DNA of 64,000 bases from Octopus vulgaris (lineage: Eukaryota). The DNA is taken from the NCBI GenBank assembly GCA_951406725.2, contig OX597814.1, forward strand, positions 92,504,001-92,568,000, given 5' to 3'. The notes under the pieces were generated by a model. It searched no databases. It saw only the letters and a program-made list of their open reading frames with translations, and was not told the origin of the DNA. Below are positions 1,831 through 44,836 of the stretch, piece by piece. Both the position numbers and the translations under genes were made by a program. Position 1 is the stretch's first letter, and each line of letters opens with the position of its first letter.

Positions 1831-3662
1831 TTTCTTTATTAGCCACACAGGGCCGAACACAGAGGGGACAAAATACAATATAGAGCTTTTCTTTGTGAAA
1901 AAAACAAAAAAGGAGAGAGAAAAATAAAATTTCGATGAAAAGGGATCGTGCATCACAGTAATGTCATAAATGTAAAAAAATAAACAGATTAGGTTTATTT
2001 GTGGAAAGAAAAGCCTACGGAAAAGACCACAGAAACCTCGGGCAATAATGTCATACAAAAACACATTACAGTAACTCTCTGTTTTTTCTTTCTTTTTCTG
2101 GTTCATAGGATTATGCTCGAGGTGACACCGTCATTCACACGTGCCATCCTTGCTACATTCACCCATCTTTTATTGAAACATTTGCTAGACAAAACCTCAC
2201 TCTACTCTCACCTTCCTTTTCAAGTGATACTTGAAGAAGTTGCTGAGAGATTGATCAGAAGGGAAAGGATTTTCTCTAGGCCTTTCAGACGCGTCCACCA
2301 TACACATTCTTTCGCCATAGCCACAAGTACGATAAAAATAGCTCTTCCTTCCCGTTTGATGGAAAGGAGGCGCGACAATATTGACGATAGACTCGGCTGA
2401 TAAGCCGACTCGTCTCACACGCAATAGCAGTCGTTCGACATAGGCCCACAAGTCGGAAATAGTTGGACACTGTACGAATGCGTACAGAATGGTTTCGTGC
2501 CCTGACCGCATCTCGGGCAGGTCAGCCTGGTGTTTTTTGATCCATGCCTGTAGAGCTTATCCCAAACGGGTAGCGCTTCTCGATAGCACTGCCAGGCCAG
2601 GGATCTCTGGAAATTGTCCATAGGTCCCGGCCCGAAAGTCGTCTTGAACAGGCGGGTCAGCTATTCCTCGTCGATGCCCAGGTTCGCCCCGAGATCGTCG
2701 TTGTGCCTCCCCTCCACTAATCCCCTATAGAATGCTATCGAGCCAGGATGGCATCGTTGCTCGAGAGCAACGCGACACTCGCGGTGCCATTCGCCCTTCC
2801 TCGGCTTCTTTTTTATCCACGAATGCAGTTCGGTCATGAAGACGAGCTGCGGGAAAGTGCGCCTCACAAACGGTGACCACACCTGTTCACCGTGGTCTAC
2901 GTAGAGCCGGGGAAGTCGCAGTCTCAGCGCGTGTCTGCGCATCATCAACCACGGCATGCCCAGCCCTCCTTTTAGCGGGTGTTAGCAGCAAACGGATCGC
3001 CTGACTACCGAAACGCTTCCTTTCCACAAGAAACGGAAGAGGATGCGTTCCAGTTTGGTGATGGTAGGGTAGGGACATGGTACGACGTTCAGGCGGTAGT
3101 AGATGACGGGCGCGATGTACGTGTTCGCCACCTCCGCTCGACCTTTTAGGGACAGCTTCCTCTCGGCCCATTGCCGGGCGAGAGTGGCCATCCTACTCGT
3201 TATTTCGTTCCAGTTCTTCTCCGTTTGGAGATCTGGACGAAACCAGACCCCGAGCAGCTCAACCTGACCGTCGGTCCAGCGTCCCACGACGGAGGCGCTG
3301 CTGGACGGCATGGGCTTGCTTCTCCAGGTGCTGATCCGCAAGCCCACTGATTTTACCCGGTTAATTTTCGCTCTTGTTACCGTTTCGTAGTCTTGCAGTG
3401 TCTCGCCGACTAGCTCGATGTGGTCCTGGCTAGACACTATGACGGTGACGTAGTCCGCGTATGCGGTCACGCTCGTTCCGCATCCCAATTCTCGCGGGAT
3501 ACCCTTCAGCGTCGCCAGCTTCCACAGCAGTGGCTCGAGGGTCAATACGTACAGAAACGACGAGAGGGGGCATCCGTGACGGACCGAACGTGTCGAAAGG
3601 TATCGATAGATGCCTTTGTATAGGGCAGCGATCCAGCCGCGGAAAACGAGACCGAAACCTGG
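1831..3662 (-). mobile_element. 5'-truncated, frameshifted Tx1/L1-clade LINE (RT C-terminus, zf-RVT region, 3' UTR)
   Basis: ORF pieces: YADxV in TAYADYVTV, LSLKGRAEVAN, LFRFLWKG, CPRCG..ETILxAFVQC; 3' end abuts (GATA)n. Confidence 0.88.
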
Positions 3663-3959
3663 CGGAAGAATCTCGGAGGAGATAAAGAAAAGGCTAGAGA
3701 AACGGGAAACAGTGAAAAATATGACAGACCGCTTCGAATATTCGATTCTTTGCTAAGCGATCAGACAACATCTAAGAAATGACTTCAAAGATTATAGACC
3801 AAAGAATTGATGCAGATTGTAGAGGAAAGGAAAAGTTTTAAAAAATGCAGGAAAGGGCTGACACTCTAGAGGTGAGAGGCAATGGAATTTAAGAAGAAAG
3901 ATAGGCTCACGGCGACAAACAATGGGGAGATAGGAGAGGTATGCAAAACCTTCTACACC

Positions 3960-39304: not shown

Positions 39305-40245
39305 AGAGAGAGAGTGAGAGACAGACAGGGAGATAGGCAAACTGGCAGGCAGACTGACAGACTATTACTATTTTACGACTATGTATTTGTTTTGTAAGAT
39401 TCCAGGTGTTGTTCATTTTCGTGAATAAAATCTATAAGGATATATCTATAAATGATAGAAGCATATTTCTTATCAAGCTATAAAATAGTAAATTATTCTA
39501 AATGGTTTTACTATAAAATAAAGGCAAAAATAAAAAGAGAAATAGATTAGAATATTTAAAACGGTAGACAAACCTAACATTATATGAATAATTTATTTAC
39601 ATTGTACAAAAGTTACCTCCCTTGTAGCACAAACCGATAACGCCTCAATTAACAATACTTCGCCTGATAAAAAAAAAGCTATGAGGTAGTCATTCCTGGT
39701 ATATATATATTTTTTACCATAAATATGTCATCACAGTGAGAGTTAACCTAAAGTAAACAACGGCAGAAGACGAAGAACGAACCTTTTCATCTTTACATTC
39801 TTTTATTCGTTTACTTATTTTAGTCATTTCACTGCAGCCGTGCTGGGATACTATCTTCAAGGGTTTTTTTTTTAGTTGAACAATCGATACCAGGACTTAT
39901 TTTCTAAGCCTAGTGCTTATTTTATCTGTTTCTTGTGCCAAACCGCTAGATTACGTGGACGTAAGCACGTCAGCACCGATTGTCAAGAGGTGAAGGATGA
40001 ACAAATAGAAGTGAAGGGACACATACACACACACACATTCTTTTAGTCTTTCACTTGTTTCAGTCATTTGACTGCGGCCATGCGGGAGCACCACCTTCAG
40101 TCGAACAAATCAACCCCAGGACTTATTCTTTGTAAGCCTAGTGCTTATTCTATGGGTCTCTTTTACCAAACCACTATGTTACGGGGATGTAAACACACCA
40201 ACATCGGTTGTCAGGCGATGATGTTGAACAAACACTGACACACGA

Positions 40246-40303
<58 letters not shown>

Positions 40304-40534
40304 TAACAATATAGGATGAAGTCCCTTTCTCTACAGAAAAGGAATCCATCAGGAAGCGTGGGCAGTATATTTTAAAAAACTGTTACGGTTGAAGTATAAA
40401 CATCATATAATTAAGGGCTAAAGAGGGTTATTCTAAAGCCAATACACTGATTTATCCACTTATAATCCGCTTGCTACAGGAGAATTGAAACTGAAAACGG
40501 GCAACTAACCTTTAGAAAATTTAAATTTCGTTAT

Positions 40535-40595
40535 CTCTATATTGAATCAATTTCGGAATTAATCTTATAAAAGATATATTCTTTCTTCAGTAGAG
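40535..40595 (-). ncRNA. Type I hammerhead ribozyme (inverted copy)
   Basis: Reverse complement of 40715-40775. Confidence 0.75.
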
Positions 40596-40714
40596 CTTTC
40601 GATGGGATATAAATAAAATACTCACGTATGATCATGGAAAAAGCACAAGCTAAAAACATAACTACACTTGAGTACATCACTTATATCTAAAAATAAAATG
40701 TATCCCATCGAAAG

Positions 40715-40775
40715 CTCTACTGAAGAAAGAATATATCTTTTATAAGATTAATTCCGAAATTGATTCAATATAGAG
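40715..40775 (+). ncRNA. Type I hammerhead ribozyme, tandem copy 1
   Basis: CTCTA-CTGAAGA-AA-GAAT-AT-ATCTT-TTAT-AAGAT-TA-ATTC-C-GAAA-TTGA-T-TCAA-TA-TAGAG; cut after 40770. Confidence 0.8.
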
Positions 40776-41202
40776 ATAACGAAATTTAAATTTTCTAAAG
40801 GTTAGTTGCCGTTTTCAGTTTCAATTCTCCTGTAGCAAGCGGATTATAAGTGGATAAATCAGTGTATTGCTTTAGAATAACCCTCTTTAGCCCTTAATTA
40901 TATGATGTTTATACTTCAACCGTAACGGTTTTTTAAATATACTGCCCACGCTTCCTGATGGATTCCTTTTCTGTAGAGAAAGGAACTTCATCCTATATTG
41001 TTAGTAGTAAACTCGCTGCTTGCTACGGGAGGACCGGTAACCATTACAATTTGTAGCGGCGAAAGATCAAGACGTTGTTTCTGAGGCTGACCAAAGAATT
41101 TTTATTTTTAGATATAAGTGATATACTCAAGTGTAGTTATGTTTTTAGCTTGTGCTTTTTCCATGGTCATACGTGAGTATTTTATTTATATCCCATCGAA
41201 AG

Positions 41203-41263
41203 CTCTACTGAAGAAAGAATATATCTTTTATAAGATTAATTCCGAAATTGATTCAATATAGAG
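41203..41263 (+). ncRNA. Type I hammerhead ribozyme, tandem copy 2
   Basis: Same motif 488 nt downstream; cut after 41258. Confidence 0.8.
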
Positions 41264-41392
41264 ATAACGAAATTAAAATTTTCTAAAGGTTAGTTGCCCG
41301 TTTTCAGTTTCAATTCTCCTGTAGCAAGCGGATTATAATTGGATAAATCAGTGTATTGGCTTTAGAATAACCCTCTTTAGCCCTTAATTATA

Positions 41393-41438
<46 letters not shown>

Positions 41439-41569: not shown

Positions 41570-42718
41570 CTACGCAGACTTATTGAAGAATCAAAAGCAT
41601 TTAACCGCGATCTTGCAATGGTATTTGTAGACTTTTCTAAAGCATTCAATTCTGTAGATAGGTACAAGATGTTTGAAATCCTTAAGCTCTTTGGGATACC
41701 AGACAAAATCATTTCTGTCATCAAGGTCCTCTACACAGATTACGTCTTCAACCATCTTAACCCCTGACGGAGAAACATCATCTTTCTCAATCAAAGCCGG
41801 AATACTGCAGGGAGACACACTCGTCCCATTTCTTTTCATCATTGTTGTTGATTATATGCTACGTATGTCAGTTGATACCATCTCTGGCAAGGGCTTTGAA
41901 ATAAAACCAAGAAGAAGTTCCAGACACCCAGCTGAGTACTTGACAGACACTGACTTTGCTGACGACATCGCTCTTATCAGTGATTCTCTCTCCAATGCCC
42001 AGTCTCTTTTACAATCTCTTGAACAAGCCTCAAATTGTGTAGGTCTTTACCTCAATGAGGCCAAGACTGAATACATAAACAAGTGCCTGTCCAAGAGTGA
42101 TTGCATCATCCATACTCTCAACAATGCGCCCTTAAATATGGTTTCTGATTACAAATATCTTGAGTCATACATATCATCATCTGGAAAAGACTTTCTTACT
42201 AGAAAGGGTATGGCCTGGTCAGCCTGTAATGACATGCATAAGATCTGCTCATCAAATCTAAGTAGAGCCTTCAAACTTGAAATCTTCAAAGCCACAGTCG
42301 AAACAATTCTACTATATGGCTCAGAAACCTGGACGTTATCAAAGAAGCTTGAGAGGCGGTTGGATGGAACCTACACTCGCCTCCTTATGAGAGCTCAAAA
42401 TCTCTCGTGGAAGCGCCATCCAACCAAAATGCAAATATATGGGAAACTACCACCTGTGTCATCTCTTGTGAAAAGTAAGAGAGTCCAGTTTGCTGGACAT
42501 TGTTGTAGAGCTGAAAAAGAGGTAATTTCTACTCTTCTCCTCTGGAAGCCATCTACTCGCAATACCAGAGGGCACACACTCTCCTACCCTGATGTAATCT
42601 CCAGGGATACAGGCATCCAGCAACAGGACCTCCATAATGCCATGATGGACCGTGAAATCTGGCGTAGCATGGTAAATTCCATTGTCTCGACCACGGTCGA
42701 ACAGTGATGATGATGATG
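41570..42718 (+). mobile_element. 5'-truncated RTE/RTE-X LINE, RT ORF nearly intact (one frameshift near 41740), (TGA)n tail
   Basis: FVDFSKAFNSV, GILQGDTLVPFLF, TDTDFADDIAL, LLYGSETWTL, RLDGTYTRLL; stop at 42707 followed by TGATGATGA. Confidence 0.92.
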
Positions 42719-44409: not shown

Positions 44410-44836
44410 GAGAATCGAAATCAATCAACATCAATGGAAATTGCAGCTGAGATACCAGTGCCGGTGGTACGTAAGAGAACCATCCGAACGTGGCCATTGC
44501 CAGCGCCGCCCTGACTGGCTTCGTGCCGGTGGCACATAAAAAGCACCATCCGTTCGTGGTCGTTGCCAGCCTTGCCTGGCCCCCGTGCTGGTAGCACGTA
44601 AAAAGCACCATCCGATCATGGCCGTTTGCTAGAATCGTCTGGCACCTGTGCCGGTGTCACGTATAAAGCACCCACTACACTCACAGAGTGGTTGGCGTTA
44701 GGAAGGGCATCCAGCCATAGAAACATTGCCAGATCAGATTGGGCCTGGTGCAGCCTTCTGGCTTTTCAGACCCCAGTTGAATCGCCCAACCCATGCTAGC
44801 ATGGAAAGCAGACACTAAACGATGATGATGATGATG
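44410..44836 (+). mobile_element. SINE/RTE-tail-type repeat with internal ~60-bp tandem units and (GAT)n tail; minus-strand relatives at about 54495-54740 and 58295-58480
   Basis: GCCGGTGGCACGTAAAAAGCACC-like unit repeated 4x; 3' GGTTGGCGTTAGGAAGGGCATCCAGCC..GATGATGATG. Confidence 0.7.

Follow-up and report, generated by a model that had tools for sequence, protein, structure and literature searches.

Non-LTR retrozymes are non-coding, structured units of low GC content that carry type I hammerhead ribozyme (HHR) motifs, two of them consecutively and one unit apart; they coexist with Penelope-like elements (PLEs), of which they have been proposed to be non-autonomous derivatives (PMC7229834; 10.64898/2026.07.22.740005). 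The element described here, located in a 64,000-nucleotide stretch of Octopus vulgaris DNA (hereafter the window), shares these features. Its 488-nt unit lies inside the 51–972 bp range of the preprint by Li, Clavereau and Pollet (2026) and is longer than the 150–450 bp units of Cervera and de la Peña (2020, PMC7229834). Retrozyme arrays are reported to reach 62-mers or more, whereas the family to which the element belongs is dispersed and has at most two HHRs per arm; dimers fall within the published range, but multimeric arrays are not seen here. Unlike retrozymes, the family spreads as 5′-truncated, two-armed insertions of PLE type in (TA)n. The preprint reports retrozyme–PLE co-occurrence and pLTR homology in vertebrates (10.64898/2026.07.22.740005), and neither octopus nor any cephalopod is sampled or named in the available portions of that work or of PMC7229834.

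The EN-bearing PLEs resemble the family in another respect, i.e., in the anatomy of the insertions: variable 5′ truncation, a partial tandem and an inverted 5′ copy (PMC3846280; PMC8557442; PMC11167929), a tail on one end only, and (TA)n targeting (Hydra, Naiad). Their HHRs likewise combine a short stem I and a palindromic stem III with a long stem II that an unpaired base precedes. They differ in that the family here lacks an ORF, and in that the published PLE tail measures 30–40 bp as compared with 100 nt here; moreover, the PLE papers describe the tail as 'optional' or 'often at one end', whereas the pairing of ends reported below (A+B) is counted and near-strict. Chlamys MRC1 (Craig 2021, PMC8557442) is also non-autonomous and forms pLTRs and head-to-tail copies. 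In the Chlamys non-autonomous elements the 3′ end resembles that of their autonomous family, and most have no HHR (PMC8557442); the unit here carries an HHR and has no detected autonomous homologue. The retrozyme kind (PMC7229834; 10.64898/2026.07.22.740005) and, qualitatively, inverted copies and the one-end tail (PMC3846280, PMC8557442) are known already, and how PLEs build tandem and inverted insertions is described as undefined (PMC8557442, PMC11167929). In the literature searched, no account was found of this family, of tails of 100–150 nt or of a counted or obligatory A+B rule; the supplements of the preprint and of Craig 2021 may list relatives.

Architecture of the window insertion

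Positions 40301–41396 of the window constitute a single insertion, in which an inverted and a forward arm with three HHR motifs are bordered by TA tracts on both sides (Table 1). The original prediction had recognized two type I HHRs with cuts 488 nt apart, preceded by an inverted copy of about 400 nt with a third HHR, and this anatomy is borne out: the core CTGAAGA recurs at 40720 and 41208 on the plus strand and at 40590 on the minus strand, and the inverted arm matches the forward arm with 98% identity. The near-identity of the copies (97–98% overall, with a single base difference, outside the motif, between the three 90-nt HHR stretches), the (TA)n flanks and the lack of coding capacity were likewise correctly read. 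No ORF is present in the doubled monomer, its longest stop-free frame being 47 aa; the cut-to-cut monomer has 33.8% GC, no tRNA gene was found near the insertion, and there is no LTR/PBS/PPT organisation. Splice-like motifs can be read by eye inside the unit, i.e., AG/GTTAGT and, twice, a pyrimidine tract with TAG (40797–40840 and 40960–40975). PLE pLTRs have been reported to contain introns.

Table 1 Features of the insertion in window coordinates. Unit positions are numbered u1–u488, u1 being window position 40701
Feature	Position	Strand	Remarks
Left flank (TA)27	40249..40302	.	Target microsatellite
Inverted arm, 398 nt	40301..40698	-	u400–488, then u1–306; 3′ end is site B (40301), 5′ end inside the u393–415 truncation hot spot
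HHR3, type I	40535..40595	-	Sequence as HHR1/2; predicted cut 40540
Forward arm, 696 nt	40701..41396	+	One full unit and 208 nt of the next; 3′ end is site A (41396)
HHR1	40715..40775	+	Predicted cut after 40770
HHR2	41203..41263	+	Identical to HHR1; predicted cut after 41258
Cut-to-cut monomer, 488 nt	40771..41258	+	Between predicted HHR1 and HHR2 cuts
5′ strand of predicted long-range helix	40827..40839	+	Pairs with 41019–41031; encloses sites A and B
Internal site A (u206)	40893..40906	+	First of two fixed family 3′ ends
'Tail' from site A to site B, 100 nt	40907..41006	+	Conserved hairpin at 40957–40992
Internal site B (u306)	40991..41006	+	Second of two fixed family 3′ ends
T-rich 5′-truncation hot spot (u393–415)	41093..41115	+	Base of long predicted hairpin ending just before HHR2
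Right flank (TA)n	41397..41436	.	TA tract starts at ~41389

The hammerhead motif and RNA structure

The window HHRs can be folded around a CUGAAGA/GAAA core into a stem I of 5 bp, which continues beyond an internal loop, a long stem II and a stem III that is palindromic, and they contain the type I elements C3U4G5A6N7G8A9 / G12A13A14, A15.1–U16.1 and H17 with three stems, of which stem I is open; the predicted cleavage triplet is A-U-A, with A17. At the base of stem II, A9 is followed by an extra A and then by A·C at 10.1–11.1 in place of the canonical G–C, so that the mismatch noted as a caveat in the original prediction is real and the defect larger than stated there. The HHRs of subfamilies S1 and S2 (S1 being the window type) may alternatively be drawn with G10.1–C11.1 and a bulged C; an unpaired base after A9 and a conserved G10.1–C11.1 are features of PLE hammerheads (Cervera 2014, PMC4209133). 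Among 35 aligned copies, the 10.1–11.1 pairing is disrupted in 18; it is intact in the older subfamilies.

The assignment of the window motif to type I is based on the core sequence and on covariation. Across the 35 aligned copies, the helices are paired in 93.9% of cells, as compared with 21–43% in slid controls, and double-sided changes number 22 against 8.4 in shuffles; they are carried by only 3 of 20 pairs and come from related copies rather than independent events, which makes the counts supportive only. An exact HHR pattern has 209 matches in the genome and none for the reversed control, and the motif is therefore not due to chance. The Rfam hammerhead models, proposed earlier as a check, gave no match at gathering score in the window or at E ≤ 10 over 40300–41400; miRNA matches in the Rfam scan were below gathering score and reflect the inverted repeat.

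The 488-nt monomer is predicted to be structured on the sense strand (−123.1 kcal/mol, z −4.05) as compared with the antisense strand (z −1.17), with 64% of bases paired when folded as a circle. The helices around sites A and B hold in 92% of cells (11 copies), with double-sided changes in 4 of 33 pairs, again among related copies and hence supportive only; RNAalifold recovers two of the three named elements in this region and misses the long-range helix, and over the HHR it predicts an alternative stem. When the window HHR is folded in isolation, the hammerhead conformation (−8.9) falls short of the stability of the optimal fold (−12.8), and in a read-through transcript of the whole insertion HHR1 would be buried in the inverted repeat.

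A dispersed, protein-free family

The window locus is one insertion of a dispersed, protein-free, HHR-bearing family with a unit of ~488 nt. In the 2.8-Gb assembly (227 contigs), the exact 19-nt 3′ half of the HHR has 737 matches, with none for the reversed control, and fuller HHR patterns have 209 and 138 matches; these figures count motifs, not insertions, and are lower bounds. We examined 207 loci, i.e., 131 distinct insertions from 150 fetched loci and two further sets of 30 and 46, which were sampled by similarity or exact pattern, so that young copies are favoured; a few of the later-sampled loci look like segmental duplicates. Two HHRs one unit apart are found in the window, where the second unit is partial, and in 19 of 208 arms. 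The longest arm measures 911 nt, arms reach up to ~1.9 units, and none of the 208 has three HHRs. The spacing of the HHRs given in the original prediction stands, and the family is dispersed rather than a tandem array.

The unit junction recurs in contigs of three independent runs. The unit is covered by contigs of three guessed-RNA runs and one probable DNA run, which are uninformative as to strand, ends or circles; no run containing the unit is listed as RNA. A>G differences over the unit occur in the DNA-sized run as well, and the depth over the HHR sums all subfamilies, so that neither was taken as a sign of expression. Contigs labelled with a second organism (X6) contain the unit including the tandem junction, and runs labelled with two further organisms (X19, X20) contain a fifth of its words.

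None of the 207 loci is linked to an ORF, and the arrangement of an autonomous PLE, i.e., an ORF with RT and GIY-YIG between pLTRs, was found at none of them. The same holds for 20 loci with 5-kb flanks and for the 100 exact HHR-half matches listed on two contigs (C1 and C2; flanks of 1.5–5 kb). Because no locus runs into an ORF, the family is not the tail of an autonomous element, and the case that would have spoken against the original prediction, namely copies that always flank a PLE ORF, did not arise; its reading of a non-coding, HHR-bearing, PLE-derived, non-autonomous element is supported.

These data bear directly on the proposal that the copies are 5′-truncated pLTR stumps of an unsampled autonomous PLE, for which inverted truncated copies, tails and dispersed HHRs would be typical (PMC8557442, PMC3846280, PMC4209133). 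Remains of PLE ORFs do lie within 1 kb of 13 of the 131 insertions; however, six PLE families are involved, and the neighbours inspected stand in both orientations and have no sequence in common with the unit, which fits nested insertion into shared TA targets. Nor do long arms lead towards a coding region: in 53 of 208 arms, site B is followed upstream by the next HHR within 150–230 nt, with no ORF, and long arms continue into another unit copy in every subfamily checked. With none of the listed HHR-half matches ORF-linked either, the stump proposal is improbable and already largely refuted. At locus L361, a Hydra-type element adjoins a family copy, and the two are distinct insertions with ~100 nt of TA between them.

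Single-armed copies account for 55 of the 131 insertions. Their pure TA tracts are longer at the 3′ ends than at the 5′ ends (median 31 vs 7 nt, p ~1e-6; the measure includes a few element-derived bases), a difference for which the addition of TA or slippage at the priming step, or else a loss at the 5′ junction, could be responsible. Two pairs among the 55 share sequence up to the 5′ junction, and by eye both were read as a common host repeat.

Two fixed 3′ ends and their pairing

The arms have variable 5′ ends, and their 3′ ends lie at u206–213 (site A) or at u306–309 (site B), 100 nt apart; TA follows directly in 83 of 88 site A arms and in 88 of 95 site B arms. Among 100 head-to-head insertions, 68 combine A with B, one has two A ends, none has two B ends and 31 are unclassified, i.e., 68 of the 69 classifiable pairs are AB. 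The first sample, part of which was drawn with a bias toward B-containing copies, contributed 55 AB, no AA or BB and 18 unclassified pairs (n = 73), the second 4 AB, one confirmed AA (L300) and 5 unclassified (n = 10), and the third 9 AB, none alike and 8 unclassified (n = 17). In samples not chosen by ends, 33 of 33 classifiable pairs are AB, and inspection by eye of the 18 unclassified pairs of the first sample assigned five to AB and none to a pair of like ends. As independent choice would give AB in at most half of the pairs, the two ends are not chosen independently.

The inverted copy, regarded in the original prediction as typical of a PLE insertion, is indeed present, but it is a second arm that ends separately and almost always at the other site. 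Synthesis of this arm by folding back is excluded by the uncorrelated arm lengths within pairs (rho −0.14, n = 31) and by the mutual overreach of the arms, each of which often extends past the 5′ end of its partner. The central junctions show gaps of −18 to +48. Arms of the same insertion diverge by 1.9%, as compared with 4.3% for the median other copy; in a test of origin from the same molecule, 7 private alleles were common to both arms and 31 were not. In summary of their anatomy, the insertions display the features of the PLE type, i.e., two fixed 3′ ends (tail), an inverted 5′-truncated copy and a microsatellite target.

The recurrence of this anatomy also makes it very improbable that tandem and inversion arose after insertion, by local duplication or hairpin repair, or during assembly. 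Instability and difficulties of assembly are known for inverted repeats in TA-rich DNA (PMC8557442), but the same architecture is present at ~100 loci with different central junctions and complementary outer ends. In addition, local duplication cannot supply site B where the partner lacks it, as in the short insertions L053, L054 and L057, and the unit junction recurs in contigs of the three independent runs.

5′ ends and the template

The extension of arms across the unit junction, up to the length given above, is in line with the classical non-LTR retrozyme route, the model of the original prediction, in which the HHRs would cut out a 488-nt monomer that circularises and a PLE reverse transcriptase (RT) would roll around it. 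This route, which we regard as possible but rather doubtful, is compatible with the A/B rule; unlike priming on a linear RNA, it would use a circular template and would require cleavage. A circle would restore a tandem eroded by truncation, as has been proposed (PMC4209133); against the route, no arm has three HHRs. The 5′ ends accumulate at u393–415 (21 vs 4.5 expected), a stretch in which 16 of 79 first-pass arms and 5 of 7 second-pass arms come to an end (post hoc). Two arms extend past the second-pass hot spot, which weakens the case for a strict linear master. The peak fits the start of a linear transcript ~1.8 units upstream or a U-tract where the cDNA lets go, and its greater strength on the second pass is at odds with a circular template.

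Ends at the predicted cuts, for which the tests are post hoc and small, point in both directions. Five of the 22 arms that reach the upstream HHR cut stop at u69–77, as compared with 0.9 expected (post hoc p 0.003), which hints that some templates were ribozyme-cleaved; three of the five, however, start at u76 with TA microhomology. None of 107 arms starts at the 3′-most cut (2.5 expected), and TA-joined starts at the cut show no excess in a genome-wide pattern search (one locus vs one control locus). The structure of the monomer on the sense strand only and the retention of HHR core and stems across subfamilies 33% apart count in favour of the retrozyme route, as does the cleavage, though weak, of an axolotl HHR whose stem II base is mismatched (PMC7229834); on the other side stand the frequent breakage of the 10.1–11.1 pair here and the observation that 8 of 9 predicted Xenopus retrozyme dimers remained uncleaved in vitro (preprint). 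Among recurrent differences between tandem repeats, which would mark a linear master, only TA-junction artefacts were found. The junction 40770/41258, suggested in the original prediction for divergent RT-PCR, is also present in the genomic tandem, so that a product across it would be no proof of a circle.

Resident Penelope-like elements

Among the PLEs identified in the genome by protein searches are at least six young families whose ORFs are intact. Families N1–N4 have GxKF/DKG and a CxxC linker (Neptune-like), whereas N5 and N6 have RW, DKT and YRDD, are without the linker and match the Hydra description (PMC8557442); a further Hydra-type family with CxCX5C is held by L361. All resident families end in TA. 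The tails measure ~30–35 nt in N2–N4 and ~130–150 nt in N5 and N6, the latter being far above the published 30–40 bp, and N1 has a single 3′ end in ~30 copies and no B-type ends. Inverted autonomous insertions, read by eye, comprise 20 AB and one AA (L217), several of the 21 having been picked because they looked inverted. N4 (775 aa) has more than 100 scored copies at 99–100% protein identity, many of them head-to-head, and this suggests that N4 was active very recently.

No clear homology was found between the unit and 120 PLE loci from the six families (blastn, N1–N6), where the searches scored top candidates only and further PLE families exist in the genome. A 13-nt match connects site B with the N1 pLTR and was set aside, as N1 has no B-type ends in the ~30 copies. 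The best weak match (L280, E 8e-5) was rejected, as it lies ~700 nt beyond a PLE end in a separate TA-ended repeat. This small inverted repeat (L280:1250–1700), in which a stretch of 41 nt matches the G subfamily at 78% identity, may represent a more distant non-autonomous family.

The C3–G8 core, the long stem II and the 100-nt tail of the unit recall the Hydra-type families more than N3, whose hammerhead is of the U3–A8 variant (L177–L184), and N1 has a degenerate HHR-like stretch only. Judged by HHR type and long tail, a mobiliser from the Hydra clade is somewhat more likely than one from Neptune; the resemblance is a lead and does not assign the mobilising family. The Hydra-type PLEs of this genome (L222–L234, L280–L299, L361) have HHRs with a very long stem II, the core in N6 being CCGAAGA.

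Subfamilies and age

Divergence was determined over 121 copies from the HHR to site A. The within-group mean is 13.4% in subfamily G (canonical G–C), 13.3% in a further canonical group (n = 9), 4.8% in GG (canonical, n = 3), 7.6% in the C·C group, 6.6% in S3 (extra A, then G–C), where it is inflated by one misgrouped row, 2.5% in S2 (A·C) and 1.6% in S1. A midpoint-rooted tree places S1–S3 inside C and C inside GG, with bootstrap support that is not fully settled. By this measure the window subfamily S1 is the youngest, and the earlier description of the element as young applies to this locus but not to the family, which is old, with subfamilies up to 33% apart.

Since S1 and S2, with low divergence, lack the 10.1–11.1 pair and the old groups are canonical, the latest spreaders are mostly without it. 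The youngest subfamilies kept spreading after the loss of G10.1–C11.1, and the hammerhead is for this reason probably dispensable or weak in them. Mutations in the HHR had no effect on PLE insertion in vitro (PMC11167929). With canonical and non-canonical cores, the subfamilies form a natural series on the role of the hammerhead in spread.

Proposed mechanism

Judged by sequence, the unit is retrozyme-like in being non-coding, self-paired and low in GC and in having two HHRs spaced by one unit, and it lacks the array habit; we place the family with the non-LTR retrozymes in kind, as a non-autonomous derivative of PLEs. The window locus is a young, non-autonomous insertion that was likely mobilised in trans by a PLE RT/endonuclease, with its arms primed at A and B. 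In such a reaction, the PLE RT/endonuclease would nick (TA)n on both strands and the protein would bind the structured A–B region of the unit RNA, after which one DNA end would prime cDNA synthesis at A and the other at B on the structured RNA (target-primed reverse transcription). Both cDNAs would stop at variable points and their 3′ ends would be joined head to head at the centre, while extension of only one DNA end would give a single-armed copy. The template would be longer than one unit, a linear transcript of ~1.8 units being more likely than a rolling circle. At the window locus, the left end would have been primed at B and copied for 398 nt, and the right end at A and copied for 696 nt.

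In vitro, a purified PLE protein, predicted to form a dimer, cuts AT-rich DNA on both strands, each of which it extends, and synthesis begins at two internal positions that delimit the tail (PMC11167929). Against the proposed mechanism, the start sites reported by Frangieh et al. are alike on the top and bottom strands in vitro (PMC11167929). Two AA insertions (L300 in the family and the autonomous L217) and the 31 unclassified pairs among 100 count against priming at A and B. A further-reaching proposal, which we advance tentatively and rate slightly below an even prospect, is that PLE integration is asymmetric by design, the two DNA ends of a single (TA)n break being primed at different fixed RNA sites (A and B) on one folded RNA, and that the parasite has been reduced to this folded-RNA platform while its ribozyme decays. 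If this were true, PLE enzymes would have in the unit a minimal substrate without coding capacity, and tails of 100–150 nt would be the hallmark of the mechanism in its Hydra-type form.

The A+B rule (68/69 in the family, 20/21 in autonomous elements) is a constraint on every model or structure of the PLE complex, and the published in vitro assay can be used to test it. The family furthermore ties retrozyme-type units directly to PLE-type insertion anatomy, in an invertebrate.

Neighbouring features

An RT fragment at 41658–42707 (+) is a separate LINE-type copy (Pfam RVT_1), unrelated to the family. Another such LINE-type fragment (Pfam RVT_1), also unrelated to the family, lies at 2982–3752 (−). 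Positions 39795–40221 hold two diverged copies (77–78%) of an interspersed repeat of ~230 nt, which is a putative octopus SINE-like repeat and also flanks many of the fetched loci. At 44454–44672, a tandem array comprises ~3.5 copies of a GC-rich unit of 62–63 nt.
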